64,000 bases of DNA from a bacterium (GTDB lineage: Bacteria; Patescibacteriota; Dojkabacteria; GCA-016699595), in the NCBI GenBank assembly GCA_016699595.1, contig CP064982.1, forward strand, positions 507,962-571,961. The letters are read 5' to 3'. Below the pieces are notes generated by a model. The model did not search any database and was not told where the DNA came from. It worked only from the letters and a program-made list of their open reading frames with translations. Made by a program: the position numbers and the translations under genes. Shown piece after piece: positions 18,615 to 60,642 of the stretch. Numbering within the stretch: position 1 is the stretch's first letter; the number at the start of each line of letters is the position of its first letter.

Positions 18615-19442
18615 TTACAAAGCAGCATCTGCTGCTGATTTCATTTCAGTCCAACTATATGCTCCAGCAAAGTTTTGATAATTCACAAAAAAGCCCGGTG
18701 TCCCAAAATTAGGGCCTACTGCAAAAGTATATGACAGAGTTTGTTCTGATGCCAATCTTGCTTTATACTTACCAGAAGATACACACTCCTTTAACGAGTC
18801 ATTAACTACATTTGTGGGTAACAAAGCATATAGTTTATCAACTAGTGCAATATCATTTTTGACTTCATTGTTGATCACGCTATAAGCAATATTTGTGAAT
18901 AAGGCATTATGAGCTTCAAAAAACTTGCCTTGATCGTATGCACAATACATAACTTGTGTAGCAACTTCACCAGCTCCATGTCCTGGGAAATATAACCAGA
19001 CAAATTGTGCCTTTCCTTCATTTACAAGCTTCTCAATCTCTCTAACAGGTGGAACATAAGTTCCTCCATCGGTATCATATTTAAACCTAGCATCTTGACT
19101 AGCTAGTTCTGGGTTGTATCCTCCTGCAATATGACAATAAGGACAACTTGGATCTGATATTTCTACTATTTTCAATTTAGCATCCTTACTTCCCATGAAA
19201 ATGAGATCATTTCTTTCAAAGAGTGCATCAATTTGTTCATTGGAAATCGTTTTGGTTTCTGCAGTAGTAGTAGTGTTTTGTGAGTTTGCAGTCAAATTCA
19301 AATTTCCACCTGATAGCTTATCTACTTTTGTAGATATAACTATCAAACCAACAAAAATTATGATTGCTGATATAAATATAGTTATAGGAGTCAAAAAAGG
19401 CAATAAATTCACCTCATCCATTTTTGAAGAATTTCTATCCAT
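18615..19442 (-). CDS. DsbA-like thiol:disulfide oxidoreductase, membrane-anchored
   Basis: N-terminal TM helix, thioredoxin-fold CPYC active-site motif. Confidence 0.7.
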   Translation of the reverse strand: MDRNSSKMDEVNLLPFLTPITIFISAIIIFVGLIVISTKVDKLSGGNLNLTANSQNTTTTAETKTISNEQIDALFERNDLIFMGSKDAKLKIVEISDPSCPYCHIAGGYNPELASQDARFKYDTDGGTYVPPVREIEKLVNEGKAQFVWLYFPGHGAGEVATQVMYCAYDQGKFFEAHNALFTNIAYSVINNEVKNDIALVDKLYALLPTNVVNDSLKECVSSGKYKARLASEQTLSYTFAVGPNFGTPGFFVNYQNFAGAYSWTEMKSAADAAL

Positions 19443-19506: not shown

Positions 19507-20673
19507 TTAAAGTGCAACAATAAAATCTCCGGAAATCCACCCAGTCAGATTTCCTTTTGAAATTTTATACCATCCATTTTCTTCTGAAATAACTTTATAG
19601 ACTTCGCCATTATAAACCCTGTCTATCTCAACAGAGTAAATGTTCGAACTCTCCCTTACACGAAGAAAATCATTCGGGGCGCCGCTTACAACAATACTTT
19701 TTTCAGTTTGCACTCCTTGTATAGCTTGTATCAGTTTTACTTGCTCACGATCAGTATTTACTGAGAATCTGGTATTACTTATTTTGATCCCGTTTAATGT
19801 GCCCAAAATGAAATCCTGTGAAGCATTGGGAACAAACTTAATAAACAAGCTAATCACTTTTTCATCATTCACCTTCAAAACATCCTTGGGTTTGAAAAGT
19901 GCAACTCTAGAAAAAGATGACCAGTATTCCTCTCCTGCGTAAAACTTACTCGTTTTGTCAAATGGATTTTCAGTTATCAAAAATATTGGGGAAATATTCT
20001 CTCCATATATGCCAACATCACCAATGTTTTTTAAGGACATTTTAACTTCAACTATGTCACCTTGCTTATAGCTTTGTTCCATTTCTTCAAAGTTTACAGA
20101 TAACTTATACTCTGGAGACTTAGTACTTGATAGATCTTTTAGTGAATTTATGGAATTAGATAAACTTGAATTTTCCGAATCAAGCAACGATAATTTGTAG
20201 GATTTTTCTTCTTCATTGATATTTATTTGCAATTTGCTTAGGATAATATCTTCAATAGCATAGCTTTCAAGCATTTTTTGAATATCCTTATTCACTACAC
20301 TTTCGCTAGGTGAAGTCCATACAATTATTTCATTTGATGTTTCGCCTAAGTTTATTTCTGATTCAGGTCCATCTTTTGCAAGTTGGTACAGTTCCTGATT
20401 GCATAAAAAATAATGAGCAGGCAAGTCAGACATAAAAAATCTTGTAGTCAGATAATACTGTAAATTTCTAACTTGCCTATCGCAACTTCTGGTCTCACTT
20501 AGTTCAACTTCAACGAATCTTAGTGATTTTGGCATTCTGAAGACTGCTTCTTTTGAGTATAGGGCTTCGTCAGCTAGCCAAACCTCCCTTTTCGTTAGTG
20601 CAAAATTATCTATAGTCGAATAGCTAAAGAAAAATATTGTAAAGATAAGTATTAAAAAAAGTTTTTTGATCAT
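19507..20673 (-). CDS. Secreted hypothetical protein with C-terminal SH3b-like domain
   Basis: N-terminal signal peptide MIKKLFLILIFTIFFFSYS; C-terminal YKVISEENGWYKISKGNLTGWISGDFI resembles bacterial SH3. Confidence 0.5.
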   Translation of the reverse strand: MIKKLFLILIFTIFFFSYSTIDNFALTKREVWLADEALYSKEAVFRMPKSLRFVEVELSETRSCDRQVRNLQYYLTTRFFMSDLPAHYFLCNQELYQLAKDGPESEINLGETSNEIIVWTSPSESVVNKDIQKMLESYAIEDIILSKLQININEEEKSYKLSLLDSENSSLSNSINSLKDLSSTKSPEYKLSVNFEEMEQSYKQGDIVEVKMSLKNIGDVGIYGENISPIFLITENPFDKTSKFYAGEEYWSSFSRVALFKPKDVLKVNDEKVISLFIKFVPNASQDFILGTLNGIKISNTRFSVNTDREQVKLIQAIQGVQTEKSIVVSGAPNDFLRVRESSNIYSVEIDRVYNGEVYKVISEENGWYKISKGNLTGWISGDFIVAL

Positions 20674-20695: not shown

Positions 20696-21619
20696 TTAGC
20701 GGATATATCTTCTTATCACAAAAGCATTTATGAATCCTCCAAAAAGTACTCCAACTGCGACATTAATTAACAGACAAAATATCAAATTTACCAAACTAAT
20801 AGAATCCCTCAATCCTATTTGATTAAAAAGATTATATATTTGACCTTCCCTAAGAATGTTTGGGTTAATGAAATAAATAACAAGAAAAATAGCTAAGAAA
20901 AATAACATCGAAAATATAATGGAGATAAAACCATATACAGCCCCTTCCATGACGAATGGAGTTCGAATTTGACTATTCGTAGCACCAACCAGCTGCATAA
21001 TACCAATTTCTTCTGACCTGATCCTTATTGAGAGTTCAATTGATAGTATGGTACTTGCCAAAGCTACCAAAAACATCAACCCCAAAAATATTCCTACCAA
21101 AACTCTAGCTACATTTAGTAACTTATCTAGTTTTTCAATATTGTCAATCTGCGATTCAATATCTTCGATTTGGCCCTCCGACAATTCCTTTTCTTTTGTT
21201 ACGAAACTAACCAATTCCTTAAGTTCGTCAATTGTATTCGCTCTAATGTCAAGAGATGCAGGTAATTGTCCAGGTTCATCTGGCTTTATTGATTCGTAAA
21301 TCAAAGGATAATCCTTTACTGATTCTAGGAAGTATGGAATAGCTTCTATATCAGAGGTATATATTATTTGATTTGCCTTTTTTGTATCTTCTATTTTAGT
21401 TTTAATGTCATTTATATAGTTTTCTGGAGTATTTATCTTAAAGAAAATGATTACATTAGGTTGCGTCTCAGCATAATTTGCAATTTTTTGAAAAACAAAT
21501 AAACTTATCAGCAGTATATTTGTGAGCAAAAATATCAAGGATAATACTGACAAAGTAGAAAAAGTTATAAACTTATACCTTGCAATATTTTTTGTAGCTG
21601 TAGATAAATTTTTAAACAT
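20696..21619 (-). CDS. ftsX: Cell division permease FtsX-like
   Basis: 307 aa; N-terminal TM, large extracytoplasmic loop, three C-terminal TM helices, MQLVGATNSQIRTPF motif. Confidence 0.7.
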   Translation of the reverse strand: MFKNLSTATKNIARYKFITFSTLSVLSLIFLLTNILLISLFVFQKIANYAETQPNVIIFFKINTPENYINDIKTKIEDTKKANQIIYTSDIEAIPYFLESVKDYPLIYESIKPDEPGQLPASLDIRANTIDELKELVSFVTKEKELSEGQIEDIESQIDNIEKLDKLLNVARVLVGIFLGLMFLVALASTILSIELSIRIRSEEIGIMQLVGATNSQIRTPFVMEGAVYGFISIIFSMLFFLAIFLVIYFINPNILREGQIYNLFNQIGLRDSISLVNLIFCLLINVAVGVLFGGFINAFVIRRYIR

Positions 21620-21712: not shown

Positions 21713-22960
21713 TCATATGCGTTTCATCTCTTTTGCTAACTCAACCTCATATTCATCTGGAGTTGCTGAGACATAAATTGTTTGATGAAGTTTTGAGTTA
21801 AATTCTTCAAACTTGAGAGGTCTATTGTCAAGTGCAGAAGGAAGTCTGAAGCCATACTCAACTAAGTTCGTTTTCCTTGCTCGATCTCCATTGTACATTC
21901 CACGAACTTGCGGAATAGTCATATGAGATTCATCAACTACAAGCAACCAATCTTTTGGAAAATAGTCAAGAAGTGTGCTAGGAGAACTTCCAACTTCTCT
22001 ACCTTCAATGATTCTGGAGTAGTTTTCGATTCCAGAAACATAACCGACTTCTTGAAGCATTTCAATATCAAAATTAACTCGCTGCTCAATTCTTTTTGAT
22101 TCAACTATTAGGCTCCTATTTTTGAAGTAATCAATTCTTTTGACTAACTCTTCTTGAATTTTTGGAATAGATGAAACAAGTTTTTCTTCTGGAGTTACAT
22201 ATTGTTTTGCAGGAAAGATTTTTATTTCAGTAATGCTGCTTCCCTGGATACTTTCCGGTTTATTTCCAATTTTCTCTCCAGTTAGTGGATGAAATAAGTT
22301 AATTTGTTCCAAAGTATCTCCAAAAAATTCAAGTCGAATTGCATTTTCACCTCCAACTTGATAAATATCTATGATATCGCCTCGAATTCTGAAACTTCCT
22401 GGGATGAAATCAAGCTCAGATCTTTCATACTGAAGATCAATCAACTGATGAATGAGTTTGTCTCTTGGGTAATCTTCTCGAACTTTCAAATTTCTAGTTA
22501 AAGCCATATAATCTTCAGGGTTTCCAAGTCCATAAATTGCAGAAACAGAAGCAACTATGATCACATCTGATCGAGTTAGTAATGACTGAGTAGTTGCAGC
22601 TCTATAGCGCTCAATATCTTTATTTATATCAACTTCCTTTTCAATGTAAAGATCTTTACTTGGAACATAGCTTTCCGGTTGATAATAGTCATAATAAGAA
22701 ATGAAGTATTCAACTGCATTATTGGGAAAAAACTCTTTAAATTCTGAAAATAACTGTGCTGCTAGAGTTTTGTTGTGAGCAAGAACTAGTGTTGGTTTTT
22801 GGATATTTTCGATAACATTTGCAATTGTGAAAGTTTTCCCAGTTCCAGTTGCACCAAGTAAGACTTGATTTTTCAAACCATAATTTATTCCTTGCGTTAG
22901 ATAATCTATAGCTTTTGGCTGATCTCCAGATGGTTTGTACTTAGAATGAAGTTGAAACAT
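21713..22960 (-). CDS. uvrB: UvrB excinuclease subunit, N-terminal 415 aa only (truncated or split)
   Basis: KPSGDQPKAI, LLGATGTGKTF Walker A, YFISYYDYYQPE, VDESHMTIPQ, RLPSALDNRPLKFEEF, IYVSATP; ORF stops where UvrB domain 3 should begin. Confidence 0.8.
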   Translation of the reverse strand: MFQLHSKYKPSGDQPKAIDYLTQGINYGLKNQVLLGATGTGKTFTIANVIENIQKPTLVLAHNKTLAAQLFSEFKEFFPNNAVEYFISYYDYYQPESYVPSKDLYIEKEVDINKDIERYRAATTQSLLTRSDVIIVASVSAIYGLGNPEDYMALTRNLKVREDYPRDKLIHQLIDLQYERSELDFIPGSFRIRGDIIDIYQVGGENAIRLEFFGDTLEQINLFHPLTGEKIGNKPESIQGSSITEIKIFPAKQYVTPEEKLVSSIPKIQEELVKRIDYFKNRSLIVESKRIEQRVNFDIEMLQEVGYVSGIENYSRIIEGREVGSSPSTLLDYFPKDWLLVVDESHMTIPQVRGMYNGDRARKTNLVEYGFRLPSALDNRPLKFEEFNSKLHQTIYVSATPDEYEVELAKEMKRI

Positions 22961-22968
22961 AAATTTAA

Positions 22969-23793
22969 CTAATCTTTAAATAACTCTAATATCATTTTTC
23001 TATAAATATTTTTAACAATATCATAATGTTCTTCCGAGAATTCAGAAAATATCTTTAGTGAAGCTGAACCATTTACTTCCAATATTATAGGTTGTCCAAA
23101 TTCATCAATAAGAAAATCTACTCCAGCATACCTTAATTCCATAATTTTGCAAGCTTTCTTTGATGCATCAGCAATCTTGTCCTTTAAATCACTAGAAACA
23201 TTCAATTCTGGAATTGCACCTTCAGACAAATTATGTTTCCAACTTGTAGTTCTTTTCTTAGCATAAACAAGTTCTATTTCACCATTCAAAATTATACATC
23301 TATATTCAAATTCAGAATCAATAAATGGATTTACTACGAAATTAAAATAAGTCTTTACTTGGTTTAAATAATATTGCAAAAAGATCTCTTTAAAATCATT
23401 TAAGTTTTCTATCTTATAAACATCTTTTCCACCAGATGAATTAAGAGGTTTAATAACTATTGGAAATTTTTCATTTTTTACAAATTCATAAGCTAAATTG
23501 AAGAATTTCTCAAACTTATTTTCTGTTTCTATTTCATTATCCAATGTCCAAAATAATTTGTATTCTACAACATTTATATTTTCATGCGAAAGAATTTCAT
23601 AAGTAATTTGTTTATCTTTTGCAAGCTCCAAAGCATTTCCAGAATTTGGATTTGGTTGTTTATTTAAAATATATTTAGTTACTTCACCATTCGTAAGCTT
23701 CGCAAGATATTTATCATTTTGCAAATATTTTATTTTTACCCTTGCTTCCTTGCATACTTCTTCTAAAACTTTGAATAAACTATCGTTTTGCAT
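22969..23793 (-). CDS. ATP-grasp family protein
   Basis: 274 aa; fold-level resemblance (IVIKPLNSSGGKDV, EVNGSASL) to RimK/glutathione-synthetase-type ATP-grasp enzymes. Confidence 0.5.
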   Translation of the reverse strand: MQNDSLFKVLEEVCKEARVKIKYLQNDKYLAKLTNGEVTKYILNKQPNPNSGNALELAKDKQITYEILSHENINVVEYKLFWTLDNEIETENKFEKFFNLAYEFVKNEKFPIVIKPLNSSGGKDVYKIENLNDFKEIFLQYYLNQVKTYFNFVVNPFIDSEFEYRCIILNGEIELVYAKKRTTSWKHNLSEGAIPELNVSSDLKDKIADASKKACKIMELRYAGVDFLIDEFGQPIILEVNGSASLKIFSEFSEEHYDIVKNIYRKMILELFKD

Positions 23794-31374: not shown

Positions 31375-32295
31375 TTAGTCTACAATTTCTATCTGATATT
31401 TTTCAAGCATTTTTAATAATTCTTTCTTACTCTTTTCACCCAAACCTTTGATCTCACCAATTTCCTTCTTTGTCTTGCCTTCAAGATCATTTAGAGTTTG
31501 AATGTTGAGCTTGTCCAAACAATTGTAAAGTCTAGTTGAAATGTTTAGTTTCGATATAGATAGATCTACTTTCTTGCCTTGTGCAAATCCTTCTTTCTTG
31601 ACCTCTACAACTTTACCGTGACAGACTTCAACAAAATGTGCAGTTATCGCATTCAAGACTTCAGATGATTCTTTCAAAGCTTCACTTGGCAATATTGAAC
31701 CATTGGTGTAAATATCCAATTCAATTTGATCTAAATCCAGATCTTGACCTAACCTTGTTTGACTTACTTTGTATGCAACTCTTTTGACTGGTGAAAAGTC
31801 AGAATCTAATGGTATAAGACCTACCTCTGATCTTTTTTCGTTATCTTCTCTTTGGTATCCTTTTTCCTTTTTTAATGTGATTTCTAATTCAAAGACTGCT
31901 TTTGAAGAACTTAGTGTAGTAATTACAAAATCTGGATTCAATATTTCAACACTTGAAGAATCTTCAAAGTCATCAGCCAAAACATCACCTTCACCTTTTT
32001 TAGATAATTTCAATTTTACTTCATCTTCGGTATTTAAGACAAAAACTATTTCTTTCAATTTCAGCAATATTTTCAAAACATCATCTGTAATACCGTCCAA
32101 AGCAGAATATTCATGCATTACATTGTTTACTCTAACTGAAGTAATTGCAACACCCATTATTGAAGAATATAGTACCCTTCGAATCATATTTGCCAAAGTA
32201 TATCCATAACCTCTAGGTAATGGTCCAATTACAAACGAACCTTCGTTTGACTTTTCAGAAATGGTTTTTAAATTAAATCTATTGAAATCAATCAT
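31375..32295 (-). CDS. rpoA: DNA-directed RNA polymerase subunit alpha
   Basis: 306 aa; N-terminal dimerisation domain and C-terminal HhH CTD. Confidence 0.95.
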   Translation of the reverse strand: MIDFNRFNLKTISEKSNEGSFVIGPLPRGYGYTLANMIRRVLYSSIMGVAITSVRVNNVMHEYSALDGITDDVLKILLKLKEIVFVLNTEDEVKLKLSKKGEGDVLADDFEDSSSVEILNPDFVITTLSSSKAVFELEITLKKEKGYQREDNEKRSEVGLIPLDSDFSPVKRVAYKVSQTRLGQDLDLDQIELDIYTNGSILPSEALKESSEVLNAITAHFVEVCHGKVVEVKKEGFAQGKKVDLSISKLNISTRLYNCLDKLNIQTLNDLEGKTKKEIGEIKGLGEKSKKELLKMLEKYQIEIVD

Positions 32296-44531: not shown

Positions 44532-44912
44532 CTAAATTGCATTAATTGCATAATACAAATCATTAATACTAAGATTAAAAGCCTCAATAAAACTTTCACT
44601 TCCATCTTCTGTAGAACCTTCACTGATTTTAACTAAATCCTCATTTACAGTATCAATTTTATTTTTGATCTCAACAAAAAACACTTCACATTCTTCGTCA
44701 ACTTTCAAACTCAAAAACAATTTGTCTTCATAGTTTTGCGACAAAATTCTTTGATTTATGCCTAGCTTTACATCATTTACAGACCGACTCAAAATGTACC
44801 TACAATTTTCCTTATTCAGTACATTTTCAAACCTTTCAGTTTTTTCATAAAAAAAGAAAGATAAGACAAAACACAAAATAAGAAAAGCAAATGAAAAAAT
44901 AGCCTTCAACAT
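44532..44912 (-). CDS. Hypothetical small membrane-anchored protein embedded between rplC and rplD
   Basis: 126-aa ORF spaced 2-3 nt from both ribosomal genes; N-terminal hydrophobic segment AIFSFAFLILCFVLSFFFY; no recognisable family. Confidence 0.5.
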   Translation of the reverse strand: MLKAIFSFAFLILCFVLSFFFYEKTERFENVLNKENCRYILSRSVNDVKLGINQRILSQNYEDKLFLSLKVDEECEVFFVEIKNKIDTVNEDLVKISEGSTEDGSESFIEAFNLSINDLYYAINAI

Positions 44913-54071: not shown

Positions 54072-54441
54072 CTCATGAGTTTAGCATGAAGGCATACAAA
54101 ATGCTAGATGCTCGACAAAATTAAACTCTGTGGTATAACTTCGATTATGCTAACTCCAGAACTAGCCACAGACATACTTGAATTTATTGACACACTCACA
54201 CCCAAGTTGCTACAAAGCATAACTTTAGTCAAAGTCGGTAGCGAATCGAAGGTTTATAAAAATATATAGAAGTGCTGCTGGATTAGGTGAAGTTTTTGTA
54301 GCTGGATTTGTCATTGAATCACTAAAAGCTGTTAATGAAAAAAGGGATCTTTACATACTAGCCTATTTTGTGATGTCAGGACAATCCTGGTTGCTTACTT
54401 AGGACAAGAAAGTCCGAAAGCATTCGAAGTATCTTAAATAC

Positions 54442-54723
54442 CTATTTCCTCAGCTCCTTCAATTTCCACATGAAGATCTTTCCTCTGTTTCCTGATTTGA
54501 GATTGTAGTCAATCGCAAAGTCAAAAGCTTCTCTGATCAATTTTTCATCAGTAACCTTGCAAAGTTTTATATACAAAGATTTGTGTGACAAATCATCAAG
54601 TTTAGTTGCAATCTCGACTCCAAGTTTTTGAAAATCATATTTCAAATATTTCTTTTCTTGCAATATTTTTTGAGTTATAAATCCGGAGTTTGAACTTGAA
54701 ATAATACTTGAAATCTTTTTCAT
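54442..54723 (-). CDS. Hypothetical small protein (93 aa)
   Basis: ORF only; no recognisable motif. Confidence 0.35.
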   Translation of the reverse strand: MKKISSIISSSNSGFITQKILQEKKYLKYDFQKLGVEIATKLDDLSHKSLYIKLCKVTDEKLIREAFDFAIDYNLKSGNRGKIFMWKLKELRK

Positions 54724-54796
54724 AAGAAAAATTTTAACAAATAAAAACGATTAATTGTATAATTGTGAATTGTTTTAATGTTTAACCTAATAAATC

Positions 54797-55957
54797 ATGA
54801 ACATAAAAAGCGACCCACAACTTGAAAAGTTAATTAATCTTGAAGAAAAAAGACAATCTGAAACTTGGTCATTGATAGCTTCAGAAAATGAAATGTTTGA
54901 TGAGGTTCGAGAAATTTTGGGAAGCAAGTTGAATAATAAATACTCAGAGGGTTACGCAGGCAAAAGATACTACAATGGAAATCAGTTTATAGATGAAATT
55001 GAGAATCTTGCAATTTCTAGAACTTGTGAAGGTTTCGGAGCAAATTTTGCAAATGTGCAAAGTTATTCAGGAAGTCCTGCAAACCAAGCAATTTATAAAG
55101 CACTACTAAATCCTGGTGATACAGTTTTAGGTTTTGACTTAAATTGTGGAGGACATTTGACTCATGGAGCAAGTGTGAATTTTTCAGGAAGTTACTATAA
55201 CTCTATAACTTATAAAGTAGATCCTCAAACTGAACTAATTGACTTTGAAGAAGTCAGAAAGTTAGCTTATGAGTATAAGCCAAAGCTGATAATCTGTGGA
55301 ACAACTGCATATAGTCGTGAAATAGACTTTCAAAAGTTCAAGGAAATTGCAACTGAAGTTGGTGCTTTTTTGCTTGCAGATATTTCTCATATTTCAGGTC
55401 TTATTATTTCAAATCTTCACCCTAGTCCAGTTGGAATTGCAGATGTTATGATGAGTACAACTCATAAACAACTTAGAGGTCCAAGAGGAGCTGTGATTTT
55501 GAGTAATAGTGAAGAAATTATGACAAAAATAAACAAGGCAGTTTTTCCAGGCCTTCAAGGTGGACCGCATAATAGTACAACTGCTGCAATTGCTCTTTGT
55601 ATGAAGAAAGTTAACAGTCGAGAATACAAAGATTATTGCAAACGAATTGTAGAAAACAGGAAAGTTATGCAAGATGTATTTGTGGATAATGAAATTCAAG
55701 TTGTTAGCGGTGGATCTGATAATCATCTCTTGGTTTTGAAAGTAGGAACGGGCAGAGGAAGGCAAGTTGCTGATGAACTTGAAAAGCTTGGAATAATCAT
55801 AAATGCAAATACAATTCCATTTGATCCAAGTAGTCCTTTTAAGCCAAGTGGCATAAGAATCGGAACCCCATGGATTACAAGTAGAAATATAGATAGTGAA
55901 AAGTTGACTGAATTGACAACCAAAATTGTAGAAATTGTGAAAAGTACAAATATCTAA
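54797..55957 (+). CDS. glyA: Serine hydroxymethyltransferase
   Basis: PLP-enzyme motifs GGHLTHG and TTHKQLRGPRGAVIL, YSEGYAGKRYYNG. Confidence 0.85.
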   Translation: MNIKSDPQLEKLINLEEKRQSETWSLIASENEMFDEVREILGSKLNNKYSEGYAGKRYYNGNQFIDEIENLAISRTCEGFGANFANVQSYSGSPANQAIYKALLNPGDTVLGFDLNCGGHLTHGASVNFSGSYYNSITYKVDPQTELIDFEEVRKLAYEYKPKLIICGTTAYSREIDFQKFKEIATEVGAFLLADISHISGLIISNLHPSPVGIADVMMSTTHKQLRGPRGAVILSNSEEIMTKINKAVFPGLQGGPHNSTTAAIALCMKKVNSREYKDYCKRIVENRKVMQDVFVDNEIQVVSGGSDNHLLVLKVGTGRGRQVADELEKLGIIINANTIPFDPSSPFKPSGIRIGTPWITSRNIDSEKLTELTTKIVEIVKSTNI

Positions 55958-55974
55958 ACGATCGAAATACTTCA

Positions 55975-56379
55975 ATGACTACAATTGACCTTCTAACAAT
56001 CAAAACACTTGGCCAACAAATTGCAAATATTCTTGATTCAAATCATATTAATTACTTAGTCTATGGAAGTTTCGGAAAATATCTTCATGGATTTGATATT
56101 GACAAGTGTAATGATATAGACATTATCATAAAAGAGATTGATTTAAACAAAATTTATGAAGTTTTCAAAAGTGACTATAATTGTTTTTTATATAAATACG
56201 GTTTACATGCAAACTCTAAATATTTCGCAAATTACAAAAACGAAACATTTGACATATCTTTTGATAGTTACGAACATTATTTTTTGGACAATGGTATAAA
56301 GCTCAATTTTCACAAAGACTGTCAAATCATCGATGGCATCAAGTGCATAAGCTTTGCACAAGCTGATATTCAGTTCTAA
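55975..56379 (+). CDS. Nucleotidyltransferase-fold protein, Lnu/Lin (lincosamide nucleotidyltransferase)-like
   Basis: YGSFGKYLHGFDIDKCNDIDIII fits the hG[GS]...DxD minimal NTase motif; C-terminal IKCISFAQADI resembles Lnu(A) KIPCISKEAQL (from memory). Confidence 0.45.
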   Translation: MTTIDLLTIKTLGQQIANILDSNHINYLVYGSFGKYLHGFDIDKCNDIDIIIKEIDLNKIYEVFKSDYNCFLYKYGLHANSKYFANYKNETFDISFDSYEHYFLDNGIKLNFHKDCQIIDGIKCISFAQADIQF

Positions 56380-56437
56380 AATACTCTCCAATCTTACCTT
56401 ACAATTCTCTTTCAATTTTTGCTAAAATATTTTCTGA

Positions 56438-58036
56438 ATGATCGAATTTCGAAACATATATAAAAAGTATGGAAGCAATGTGATATTTGATGGCTTTACA
56501 GAAGCTATTCAAACTGGAGAGTTTGTCTTTTTGGTAGGAGCGTCTGGATCAGGTAAATCTACATTGTTCAAAATGCTAATTAAGGCAGAAACTCCAGATA
56601 GTGGCAATATTTTGATTGATGGGTATGATCTAAATGATTTAAGAAATCCTCAATTACCCATGCTTAGAAGACAAATAGCAGTGATTTTCCAAGACTTCAA
56701 ACTTGTCCCAAACAAAACTGTTTATGAGAATTTGGAATTTGCTATTAGAGTTCAAAATATAAAGATAAATATTCCAGCAAAAATAAACGAACTTTTGGAT
56801 CTAGTTTCATTACAACACAGAAAAGACGCTCTGCCAAAGCAACTTTCGGGAGGAGAAAAGCAAAGAGTGGCAATAGCTAGAGCTATGAGTACGGATCCGA
56901 AAATTCTGCTAGCTGATGAACCAACTGGCAACCTAGATCCTCAATCGACTTGGCAGATTGTGAAATTGCTTGATGAGATAAATGAAACTGGAACAACTGT
57001 AATTATGGCGACTCATGATCCTGAGATAGTAGATACTGTAAACACTAGAATTATCCATCTTGGATCAGACAATAAAGCTGAAAATAAAACAAAACAATAT
57101 AAAGAAGAGGTGATGAATGATTTTGCAAATGAAGGTAGAAGGTTTCTATATACCGAGCCTGACTCAAAAGCAAGTACAGATATAGATAATTTTGAATCTA
57201 CTTACTTTGCTAATGATTTTACTTCATCTGATGTACAGCAACCACAAGACGAATCTTTTGAAGGTAAAATGCGAGAGGCTGAGACTAGGCAGGAAGCAAA
57301 TTCTAGATTTGCTCAAACCGAAAACATAAGACCTGAAAATGTCAAAGGTAGCTTACTGAACGAAACACAAGAAAATAAGCATGAAGATAGAGCAAGTGAA
57401 TTTGAGAAAAGTTTTGCAACAAAGCGAAGTATATTCGGAAGTAATTTGACAGAGAGAAAACCAGCTTCACCTAACACAAATCAGAAACAAAATTACAGCT
57501 CAACTTTGACTAGTAATAATCATGTCAAAAAGCCAAAGAATGACATGTCGTTGAATAAGGACCGTAAACATAATGAGAGGAAATCAGATGATAAACCAAA
57601 AATCGATAAGAATTCTATAGAAAATAAGTCATACTCTATAGCTGAAAATCAGAATGTACCACACAAGCAATTTCAAAATACTTCACTAGCTAGATTCAAA
57701 AGTATTTTTAGCAAAAACAAAGTAACTTCTGATACTGTGGACAAAAAGATCAGCATCGACATAGTAGAACCGACAACTCAAACAAAAGAGTCACATACAA
57801 GCAAACATTATCAAGGCTTCACTTATACTACAACGAAAGTTTCACAAATTTCAAATGACAATGTCGATGAACTTGAAGTTCTTGATTTGCCAGAAGATAT
57901 AAAAAGAACACTAAGGATAAATAGAGTTCGGACCATTCGACAACTGAAACTAATGAGCGAATTTGAGCTAAATAAACTTGTTGGAAGTTTGAATACTTGG
58001 AAAGTGAAGAAGGCTATAGAGAAAGTCAGATTGTAA
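56438..58036 (+). CDS. ftsE: FtsE-like ABC ATPase with ~300-aa low-complexity C-terminal extension ending in an RpoA-CTD-like HhH segment
   Basis: Walker [13 protein letters not shown] signature [14 protein letters not shown], Walker [14 protein letters not shown]-loop; C-terminal [48 protein letters not shown]. Confidence 0.75.
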
Positions 58037-58110
58037 GAATTATAGAAAGTAACTTAAAGAACTCTATTGAATTTATGAGTTCAAGCAAATTAGTTGATCC
58101 AGTTGACAGA

Positions 58111-60642
58111 TCATCTATTTACACTTGCAATACCTTCTAGTTCATCCATATCTCCATAAATTGAATCTTCAGCTTTGCTAGTAAATCCTACCGGTTCACT
58201 ATCAGCAGTATACTCATTCACTTTATCCCAATTAATTGTATAGCCCTTTGTCCCACCTAAGTTTTCGCCAAGAAATCCTTCTTCTTGAAGCTCTGCTACC
58301 AACCTAGAAGATTTGTTGTAACCTATCTTCATATGTGTTTGCAAAAGCGAGGCTGAAGCTTTCCCAGCTCTTTTGATGATTTTCAATACCTCAATCTTTT
58401 CAACTGAAAGATCACTATCGCTTGGAATATTTTCACCTTGTGAATATTCTACAAAGGACTTTCGTTGCGAATCCCACTTCTGAGATGAATTCACACTTTC
58501 TAAGTAGTTAGGTTCATTTGAGTAAGATTCATATTGTTCCTTGATAAATGCGACAATTCTTTTGATCTCATCACCAGAAATGAACGCACCCTGCAATCTC
58601 CTGACTTTGTTTGATTCTATTTGTGCCAACATATCTCCATTTCCCAAAAGATCTTCTGCGCCAGGTTGATCAAGAACAACCCTAGAATCAGTATTGCTAT
58701 TGACCCTAAGTGCTACATGCGCTGGAAGATTACCTTTCAAAATACCAGTTATGACATTGACACTAGGTCTTTGTGTAGCAAGTATTAGGTGAATTCCGAC
58801 TGCTCTTGCCTTTTGGGCAATTCTAGTAACTTCTCCTTCAAATGCTTTTCCTGTAGTCATCATCAGATCAGCAACCTCGTCTATAATGATAACTATAAAT
58901 GGCATAGCTGAAAATCCCATTACATCATTGTATTCAGATATATTTTTGACACGTGCTTCAGCAAGTATCGTATATCTTCTATCCATTTCTTCAACCGACC
59001 ACTTGATAGCATTCATAACTTTATCAGTTTCACCAGTTATAAGTGGAGTTAGCAAGTGCGGTATACCATCATAGTCAGCAAAGTCAACTTTCTTAGGATC
59101 AACAATAATCAATCTAAGTTCGTCAGGACTTTTTGTCATAAGCAGACTCATCAGAAGCGTATTTGTCAAAATAGATTTCCCAGAACCAGTAGTACCAGCT
59201 ATAAGTAAATGAGGCATTTTTTGTAAGTCATAGACAACCGTTGAACCATCTATAGCTTTACCTAGAGTGACACCTAATTTATGAGATTTATAACTTTTAG
59301 AAAGTGTTTCCATCATTTCTCTAAATCTAACTATATTCCTCACTTTGTTTGGCACCTCTATCCCTATATACGGAGTTCCATCAATTTGTTGCATTCTGAT
59401 TTCACCTACTGCAGATAGGTGCGACTTCAAATCACTAGAACGCCTTTTGATCGAATCGACAGTAACTCCCTCTGCTATAGCTACTACATACTGTGATACA
59501 GATGGACCTATCTTACATAATTCTCTTTGTACTTTCACATTTATACCAAAAGATCTAAACGATCTTTCAATAATTTCAGAGTTTCTTTCAATTTCCTTTC
59601 TATCTTGTTTTGGAAGTTCGTACTTATCAAGTTCTGAAACAGGTGGATTTATCCAATCACTAAATTTCAAAACTAAGTTTTGCAGAGCTTCTTCACTTGT
59701 TGCATTTTCTGCTAATTCTTTAGTAAGGTCAGACGGATCTTCATCACCTTCGATGTAATTGATAGCTTTATCTACTTGCAAATTCTTCTTATCAACATCA
59801 AGGTTAACCGATTTTTGCCTTGCCAATTCTTTCCATGGCGGCTCTTTAGCTTCATTGTTGTATTGATTGTGATTAGGCTTAAGAGGTTCAATATCTTTTT
59901 CGTTATTTTGCCAATACTTTGAGTTTATGATCCTGTCTTCTTCATCTTCATCATCTATCTCATCTTCGCTTACTAGTTTTGTCTCACGCGCAGCTTTCTT
60001 TTGTTCGATATACAAATTAGTTGCTAGAAACAAGCCTTTGATCTGATCATAGATTGAAGAGAATATCTTGGCTATCATCTCAAAAATCTTCAAGATTTTG
60101 ACCCAGATATTTGCAAGAGATAAATTGAAAGATAATGACGCTACTAAAATCATCGTAATGACGAGAATAAATTTAGCAAGAAAATTTCCCAAAGCATCTG
60201 CCAAAAATCCGCCAAGAAAATAGCCTACATGACAATTACCCAAAAAGGTAAGAATATCAAGTGAACCTGAAACAAATTTACAACTATAGGAAGCAAAGTT
60301 GCCTAAATATTCATAACTTCCAATAAGGAAAAAAAGTATAAACTGAAAGAAACTAGATAAATTTTGATTTGCAGCATAAGAAAAACCTAATTTCTTTAGG
60401 GAAATATTTATAAGCAGAAATGACAATGGGAATGTTGAAATACCAAGAAATTTACCAATAGTTACCAAAATCTTTCCTGAATCAACAGGTGCAAAATATG
60501 AAAGTAAAACAATAATTCCTAATATGAATATAAATATACCAAAAACTATATTTACTTCTGTAATGTCGTATTTGACAACTTGAGGTGCTTTTTTCCGTCC
60601 CATGTCTCTGATATTACTAAATAATACTAGAGATATCAACAT
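58111..60642 (-). CDS. ftsK: DNA translocase FtsK/SpoIIIE
   Basis: N-terminal TM domain, Walker A GTTGSGKS, Walker B IVIIIDEVADLMM, ILATQRPS, C-terminal gamma-like winged helix. Confidence 0.9.
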   Translation of the reverse strand: MLISLVLFSNIRDMGRKKAPQVVKYDITEVNIVFGIFIFILGIIVLLSYFAPVDSGKILVTIGKFLGISTFPLSFLLINISLKKLGFSYAANQNLSSFFQFILFFLIGSYEYLGNFASYSCKFVSGSLDILTFLGNCHVGYFLGGFLADALGNFLAKFILVITMILVASLSFNLSLANIWVKILKIFEMIAKIFSSIYDQIKGLFLATNLYIEQKKAARETKLVSEDEIDDEDEEDRIINSKYWQNNEKDIEPLKPNHNQYNNEAKEPPWKELARQKSVNLDVDKKNLQVDKAINYIEGDEDPSDLTKELAENATSEEALQNLVLKFSDWINPPVSELDKYELPKQDRKEIERNSEIIERSFRSFGINVKVQRELCKIGPSVSQYVVAIAEGVTVDSIKRRSSDLKSHLSAVGEIRMQQIDGTPYIGIEVPNKVRNIVRFREMMETLSKSYKSHKLGVTLGKAIDGSTVVYDLQKMPHLLIAGTTGSGKSILTNTLLMSLLMTKSPDELRLIIVDPKKVDFADYDGIPHLLTPLITGETDKVMNAIKWSVEEMDRRYTILAEARVKNISEYNDVMGFSAMPFIVIIIDEVADLMMTTGKAFEGEVTRIAQKARAVGIHLILATQRPSVNVITGILKGNLPAHVALRVNSNTDSRVVLDQPGAEDLLGNGDMLAQIESNKVRRLQGAFISGDEIKRIVAFIKEQYESYSNEPNYLESVNSSQKWDSQRKSFVEYSQGENIPSDSDLSVEKIEVLKIIKRAGKASASLLQTHMKIGYNKSSRLVAELQEEGFLGENLGGTKGYTINWDKVNEYTADSEPVGFTSKAEDSIYGDMDELEGIASVNR

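Follow-up and report, generated by a model that had tools for sequence, protein, structure and literature searches.

A predicted RNA polymerase alpha-CTD-like domain at the end of a long disordered tail on FtsE in Dojkabacteria and related candidate phyla

FtsEX is a conserved switch that couples assembly of the cytoplasmic divisome to cell-wall hydrolysis outside the membrane, and the cytoplasmic inputs to its ATPase, FtsE, are partly understood, in a few model species. The candidate phyla radiation (CPR) accounts for a large share of bacterial diversity and is marked by tiny cells and reduced divisomes. Here we describe an ftsE gene from a member of the Dojkabacteria, located within a 64-kb window (the whole stretch of DNA analyzed, 64,000 nucleotides of contig CP064982.1). 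Elongation factor EF-G assigns the organism to the Patescibacteria; among named relatives, Dojkabacteria/WS6 are the nearest, at 59-63% identity. The gene (56438..58036, + strand) encodes a 532-aa protein consisting of an ABC ATPase, or nucleotide-binding domain (NBD), a disordered linker of about 260 residues, and a C-terminal module of two helix-hairpin-helix units, (HhH)2. The module is predicted to resemble the C-terminal domain of the RNA polymerase (RNAP) alpha subunit (alpha-CTD), at the level of fold and profile only. Full-text searches turned up no account of such an appendage, and an FtsE with a tethered alpha-CTD-like domain is thus undescribed in the literature searched; the sequences themselves and automated Pfam matches to them are public. 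We consider the tail most likely to be a lineage-typical tethered adaptor on a genuine FtsE.

The N-terminal domain (aa 1-212; 56438..57073, +) matches PF00005 with an E-value of 2.5e-36. Its Walker A motif (56537-56563), LSGGEKQ signature (56843-56863), ILLADE Walker B motif (56903-56920), and THD H-loop (57011-57019), all on the + strand, are intact and are invariant in the FtsE family alignment. Against TIGR02673, the FtsE equivalog model, the 532-aa protein scores 255.4 bits, slightly below the curated trusted cut-off of 264.85; the match spans aa 1-210 of the protein and positions 1-212 of the 214 in the model, and the next-best family scores 68 bits lower. In the full-length AlphaFold2 (AF2) model, the ATPase domain has a predicted local distance difference test score (pLDDT) above 90. 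Within the 64-kb window there is neither another ftsE nor a remnant of one, and the terminal module has no further strong copy. An exact 8-mer scan of genome contigs with the whole protein found only unrelated ABC ATPases (from Myxococcales, Klebsiella, and others) and gave no information on taxonomy or context. Orthologs of the extended protein in sister lineages directly precede ftsX, and these sequence comparisons indicate that it is a genuine FtsE, the ATPase that would power the FtsEX divisome complex, with an ABC ATPase domain predicted to be catalytically intact.

The C-terminal module occupies aa 473-532 (57854..58033, +), with a folded core at 478-531, and is of the RNAP alpha-CTD/Rad51-N type. 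Searches of Pfam and the PDB with the last 64 aa alone gave nothing meaningful (UPF0158, E 0.06; mitochondrial L12, E 0.35), and the fold is therefore visible only via a family profile and structure prediction. The profile of an alignment of 22 C-terminal modules from different sub-clades (A1) matches RNAP alpha-CTDs in the PDB over nearly the full length of the profile (E 4e-6 to 1e-4), as well as NusA AR1/AR2 (E 3e-6) and Rad51/RadA N-domains. Taken singly, 15 of the 22 modules match PF03118 (RNA_pol_A_CTD) at E <= 1, the best at 2e-8, and a subset of the best 120 whole-protein homologs has precomputed matches to PF03118 and PF14520 (HHH_5).

AF2 models the module as a four-helix bundle (helices 486-494, 500-505, 508-515, and 517-531) in which two helix-hairpin-helix units, 486-494/500-505 and 508-515/517-531, pack as a single domain; the core pLDDT is ~85 when modeled from the module alignment and 92-94 in the full-length model. 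Over the whole domain, the module is structurally closest to RNAP alpha-CTDs and Rad51-family N-domains, with alpha-CTDs giving the best Foldseek superpositions (9dvt_A, TM-score 0.73/0.80, root-mean-square deviation 1.0 A; 1z3e_B, TM-score 0.73/0.73). Structural neighbors also include UvrC, PolX, DisA, and Y-family polymerase HhH domains alongside Rad51-N, as well as NusA-AR and SAM domains, and nearly all of the strong ones are DNA-binding (HhH)2 modules. A sequence-only reading of the window had proposed an FtsE with a long disordered tail and, from the spacing of hydrophobic residues, an RpoA-CTD-like HhH C-terminus; the tail was confirmed, and the C-terminus agrees with the proposal at the level of fold and profile, being modeled as a confident (HhH)2 fold rather than as disordered sequence.

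To place this architecture among relatives, we pooled 181 proteins with an N-terminal FtsE-type ATPase from single-sequence and profile homolog searches. The boundary of the NBD in family members was defined with phmmer. In 112 of the 181, the module ends or lies within an extension, whereas 39 have an extension without a detectable module and 30 are of canonical length; most of the best 120 whole-protein homologs are 350-550 aa long. Named carriers include Candidatus Dojkabacteria/WS6 and Doudnabacteria. Candidatus Harrisonbacteria has a canonical 226-aa FtsE, and the extension is therefore widespread, not universal, in the CPR. Among module carriers the linker ranges from 58 to 277 aa (median 115), the longest being those of the relative P0002 (277) and of the window FtsE (261). 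Judged from these homologs, the extended architecture is the norm among CPR relatives of the window FtsE and non-canonical relative to model bacteria, so that the earlier description of a non-canonical divisome architecture applies in the second comparison and not in the first. What is peculiar to the window genome is the very long linker together with the relocation of ftsE away from ftsX.

The module profile is not specific to FtsE. In an exhaustive search with it, the top matches were proteins with 3-13 tandem copies, and because these dominate the list, the FtsE sub-family could not be sized in this way. Proteins P0128-P0153 (290-900 aa) mostly comprise 3-13 tandem RNA_pol_A_CTD-like (PF03118) modules, and some also carry sigma-70 region 4, helix-turn-helix domains, or AT-hooks. 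These alpha-CTD-repeat proteins are unrelated to RpoA or FtsE.

The linker (aa 213-472; 57074..57853, +) is rich in K, S, N, E, and T, which together make up 133 of 258 residues, and its hydrophobic fraction is 0.17, versus 0.34 in the ATPase. Residues 215-473 have pLDDT <50 and lack secondary structure in the full-length AF2 model. The linker reading frame contains no stops, versus 11-42 in the other five frames. Tandem Repeats Finder detected no tandem repeats in the ftsE DNA, indicating that the linker did not arise by recent expansion of repeats. P0002 is 47% identical to the window FtsE over 100% of its length; by part, the ATPase is ~80% identical and the module ~85%, while the linker is hardly alignable.

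We also compared the window ftsE at the codon level with L020, a strain variant from an independent assembly. The ATPase differs by 0 non-synonymous and 6 synonymous changes (omega 0) and the module by 0 and 4 (omega 0), whereas the linker, in which neither indels nor stops occur, differs by 34 non-synonymous and 10 synonymous changes (omega 0.81). The dN/dS of the two folded domains rests on only 10 synonymous changes; the contrast in non-synonymous to synonymous counts between the linker and both folded domains is nevertheless significant (Fisher p = 8e-6). This comparison shows two constrained domains joined by a tether that drifts almost neutrally in sequence while its presence and length are kept, and it indicates purifying selection on the terminal domain.

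One short segment of the linker departs from this pattern of drift. An amphipathic basic-aromatic motif at aa 416-428 (57683..57721, +), similar to the membrane-targeting sequences (MTS) of MinD and SepF, is its sole conserved island; the P0002 counterpart is FDKFKSLFSINL, and no substitutions relative to L020 fall between aa 413 and 433. Of 102 de-duplicated family linkers, 22 carry a motif of this class, usually ~60 aa past the ATPase; shuffles gave 1.8 +/- 1.4 (maximum 6). Versions in relatives include KRGLFGWLFRKK, KGGFFTKLFGKKK, and RSFFSFFKRNKK, among others, with P0412, P0418, P0071, P0063, P0086, and P0049 among the carriers. The hydrophobic moment of the aa 416-428 motif is 0.48, compared with 0.45 for the E. 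coli MinD MTS (KGFLKRLFGG; PMC5471200) and a linker mean of 0.23 +/- 0.12. The full-length AF2 model contains no helix at aa 416-428; on sequence grounds, the motif may be a membrane-targeting helix.

A second element recurs in the tails of relatives. In one class, the short, basic, beta-strand-like motif [KR][VI][KR][VI]xL, followed by lysines, immediately precedes the (HhH)2 module; in another, it is located at the extreme C-terminus, past the module. Of 93 tails, 44 contain it, and shuffles gave 12 +/- 3, a comparison that ignores relatedness. Examples are KIKVSL in P0011 (aa 367-372), RVKIHL in P0050 (aa 433-438), and KVKVDL in P0053 (aa 411-416); in the window FtsE, KISIDI (aa 437-442; 57746-57763) is at best a weak match.

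The ftsX gene (20696..21619, -; PF02687 and PF18075), encoding the presumed membrane partner of FtsE, is 34,818 bp from ftsE, as the sequence-only reading had noticed (~35 kb), and no ABC ATPase is encoded beside it. Its product is 32-34% identical to the FtsX proteins of L002, L005, and L019, whose genes directly follow extended ftsE. Downstream of ftsX is an SH3_3-domain gene (19507..20673, -; PF08239, 3e-11), a candidate extracytoplasmic partner of FtsX, which is orthologous to the gene following ftsE-ftsX in L018 and L019. The third conserved gene of the block encodes a Thioredoxin_4/DsbA-like protein (18615..19442, -; PF13462) that is 38-41% identical to its L018/L019 equivalent. L018 and L019, whose modules are of the same V-G-x-x-N-x-W-K flavor as that of the window, have the order ftsE-ftsX-SH3_3-thioredoxin/DsbA. 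The window ftsX-SH3_3-Thioredoxin_4 block (21619-18615, -) is orthologous to theirs and lacks ftsE at its head. Based on this order in sister lineages, ftsE was relocated in the window sub-lineage, and we interpret the unlinking from ftsX as a derived rearrangement inherited within that sub-lineage. In three other sub-clades (L002, L004, and L005), extended ftsE stands first in a classical operon, followed by ftsX and then by a gene encoding a coiled-coil/degenerate-M23 (EnvC-like) protein. The gene after ftsX thus varies among CPR sub-clades between SH3_3 plus DsbA/thioredoxin-like and coiled-coil/degenerate M23 (EnvC-like) types, which suggests that the extracytoplasmic partner of FtsX has been swapped.

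The next gene after ftsE is ftsK (58111-60642, -), as also noticed earlier; the two genes are convergent and separated by a 74-bp spacer. The order glyA, ftsE, convergent ftsK is common to the closest relatives (P0002/L017, L020, and L001), and in P0035 ftsE is also unlinked from ftsX, with different neighbors. We rejected a functional ftsE-ftsK operon, since the genes are convergent and adjacent only in the closest relatives; such a sub-lineage-limited adjacency provides no evidence of a functional link. A promoter/terminator scan of 54300-58300 gave 17 promoter-like sites where 16.4 were expected, with no terminators, and is therefore uninformative about the transcription unit.

Between glyA and ftsE lies a 134-aa ORF (55975-56379, +) with faint nucleotidyltransferase-like similarity (Aminoglyc_resit, E 0.03). 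At this position L020 has a 480-nt gap with no gene called and L017 has a 132-aa ORF on the opposite strand; the ORF appears to be a variable spacer gene. Near ftsX, the position held by ftsE in sister lineages is occupied by a uvrB-like ORF (21713-22960, -) of 415 aa that includes only the N-terminal helicase part (ResIII/DEAD and UvrB_inter) and may be a truncated or split uvrB; an ATP-grasp enzyme gene (22969-23793) is located upstream of it on the same strand. Elsewhere in the window, a 126-aa ORF (44532-44912, -) with a hydrophobic N-terminus, MLKAIFSFAFLILCFVLSFFFY..., is found in the S10 operon between putative rplC and rplD genes, an assignment based on where these two lie in the operon and on the N-terminal sequences they encode. 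An insertion between rplC and rplD in this ribosomal-protein operon would be unusual.

How might the tail function? FtsX would hold the ATPase at the membrane, which the MinD-like amphipathic motif of the linker may also contact. The appendage could then act as a fishing line, with the terminal domain reaching tens of nanometers into the cytoplasm of a very small cell and capturing a partner there, much as the alpha-CTD does on its own linker. The partner we prefer is DNA, which would be bound without sequence specificity via the HhH scaffold and a basic surface; such capture would make septal wall hydrolysis by FtsEX responsive to where the chromosome lies. DNA is favored as the ligand because nearly all strong structural neighbors of the module are DNA-binding (HhH)2 modules and because each class combines its module with either a basic surface or a lysine-rich flank. 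The charge of the module core is +6 in the window FtsE and +7 in P0002, versus -3 to +4 elsewhere in the family, and the lysine-rich flanks are found in other classes.

Several observations keep DNA binding at the level of a hypothesis. The window module alone does not match PF03118 even at E <= 10. We aligned the modules with the E. coli alpha-CTD, whose sequence was checked against the PDB, and with the RpoA CTD of the window, focusing on R265, N268, C269, G296, K298, and S299 (the "265 determinant"), the established DNA contacts of the alpha-CTD according to published work on that domain and to the 1LB2 complex. The corresponding residues of the FtsE module are D, R, T, G, L, and N, one of six being retained, whereas RpoA of the same genome has R, N, C, G, K, and S, retaining all six. 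Across the FtsE family these positions are variable, while the hydrophobic core positions are conserved. The hairpins of the window module read N-R-V-R and G-S-L and have lost the canonical Gly-hydrophobic-Gly signature; class-A relatives, among them P0011 and P0018, are the only ones to keep a G-I-G hairpin. As the DNA-reading residues are absent, alpha-CTD-style binding of UP elements was rejected as a mode of action, and the module does not qualify as a functional alpha-CTD, despite the predicted alpha-CTD fold and the shared logic of a domain on a leash. It is also not a recent duplicate of the rpoA CTD, as tblastn finds no match in the window and the hhalign alignment gives an identity of 16%; the genuine rpoA is a separate gene (31375-32295). 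Because the PF03118 match is lacking and only one contact residue is kept, we propose the FtsE tail as a tether to non-specific DNA tentatively, at somewhat less than even chances. The more specific proposal that CPR FtsEX carries a chromosome sensor, in which an alpha-CTD-like (HhH)2 domain on a membrane-skimming tether binds the nucleoid and gates or positions septal hydrolysis, is speculative and rather unlikely as it stands. To our knowledge, ultrasmall CPR cells commonly lack the Min and nucleoid-occlusion systems, and a chromosome sensor, if real, would be a previously unrecognized coupling of nucleoid and division borne on an ABC ATPase.

The loss of the alpha-CTD DNA determinant, together with hairpin glycines that are degenerate in most classes, also fits with the module being a protein-protein adaptor that binds a cytoplasmic divisome protein, for instance FtsZ, FtsA, or SepF, and either recruits FtsEX or is regulated by its partner. 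Such an adaptor could replace or reinforce the FtsE-FtsZ contact known in E. coli, where FtsE reportedly binds FtsZ (Corbin et al. 2007). Protein-protein interaction is the role of NusA-AR2, of SAM domains, and of the alpha-CTD faces that bind activators, and the NusA AR1/AR2 profile matches and the NusA-AR and SAM structural neighbors are in keeping with this function, as is the invariant surface signature particular to each module class (N-x-W-K in that of the window), which is the pattern expected of co-evolution with a partner. However, no candidate partner emerged, the only conserved gene neighbors being ftsX and periplasmic partners; the strongest structural neighbors bind DNA; and the strongly basic surface in the window sub-lineage also fits nucleic-acid binding. 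We regard the adaptor as a substantial possibility, only slightly less probable than DNA tethering. The tail might instead bind anionic membrane, or the module might oligomerize as SAM domains do and cluster FtsEX at the septum. The excess of MinD-MTS-like motifs over shuffles and their MinD-like hydrophobic moment, the basic core, the SAM neighbors, and the tandem arrays of 3-13 module copies in other proteins could all be accommodated in this way. Yet FtsE is already membrane-bound via FtsX, AF2 places no helix at the motif, the core is neutral in most classes, and an anchor has no need of a folded, strongly constrained 55-aa domain, making this explanation distinctly unlikely.

Two further explanations concern the identity of the gene rather than the function of its tail. 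The protein could be a paralog, an ABC ATPase that works with a different FtsX-like permease or with one of the MacB type, and the true ftsE would then lie elsewhere in the genome, given that its TIGR02673 score falls short of the cut-off, that it is not encoded beside ftsX, and that the data cover 64 kb of a ~762-kb genome. The 68-bit gap to the next-best family and the lack of a second ftsE or remnant in the window argue otherwise, as does the same combination of NBD and module class directly upstream of ftsX in L018 and L019, whose ftsX-SH3_3-thioredoxin genes are orthologous to those of the window; we consider a paralog very improbable. AT-rich, low-complexity sequence can in principle mask indel errors, and the tail could then be untranslated junk, or an ORF located downstream that a frameshift or an assembly error has fused to ftsE; we found no other support for such an artifact. 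It is refuted by independent assemblies that give the same 532 aa with no indels, by the full-length match to P0002, by the absence of in-frame stops, by the constraint on the terminal domain, and by the 112 relatives that share the architecture, leaving it a negligible chance.

Tethering to DNA remains the function we favor, tentatively, for a domain that is in any case conserved and selected. An extra domain of this kind suggests that FtsE receives a lineage-specific signal for the control of division, be it from DNA, a protein partner, or the membrane, and the alpha-CTD fold appears to have been reused outside transcription, both in FtsE and in tandem-array proteins. With a domain of 55 aa and a motif of 13 aa, the construct is compact and modular, making these hypotheses directly testable in vitro and in heterologous hosts.

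In comparison with the FtsE of characterized FtsEX systems (E. coli, M. tuberculosis, and S. pneumoniae), the window FtsE shares the ABC ATPase with all catalytic motifs, and its orthologs are likewise encoded beside ftsX and a periplasmic hydrolase/activator-type gene (M23/EnvC-like or SH3_3). Canonical FtsE is ~220-230 aa long and lacks an appendage, whereas the window FtsE adds a 260-aa linker and (HhH)2 module and is encoded 34.8 kb from ftsX. The closest item in the literature searched is a report on canonical FtsE of Neisseria, which bound DNA in an overlay assay and has no recognizable motif (PMC2885667). The linker motif is similar to the MTS of the MinD/SepF/FtsA type, and to that of MinD in both sequence and hydrophobic moment; MinD-type sequences are C-terminal, however, while the FtsE motif is internal (416-428 of 532) and part of a protein already membrane-associated via FtsX. 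Compared with Rad51/RadA/RAD51C N-domains and HHH_5 (PF14520), the window module lacks the recombinase context and its hairpin glycines are degenerate. Finally, the alpha-CTD (PF03118; 1LB2, 1Z3E) is joined to the alpha N-terminal domain, whereas the window module is joined to an ABC ATPase and its second hairpin is two residues shorter.
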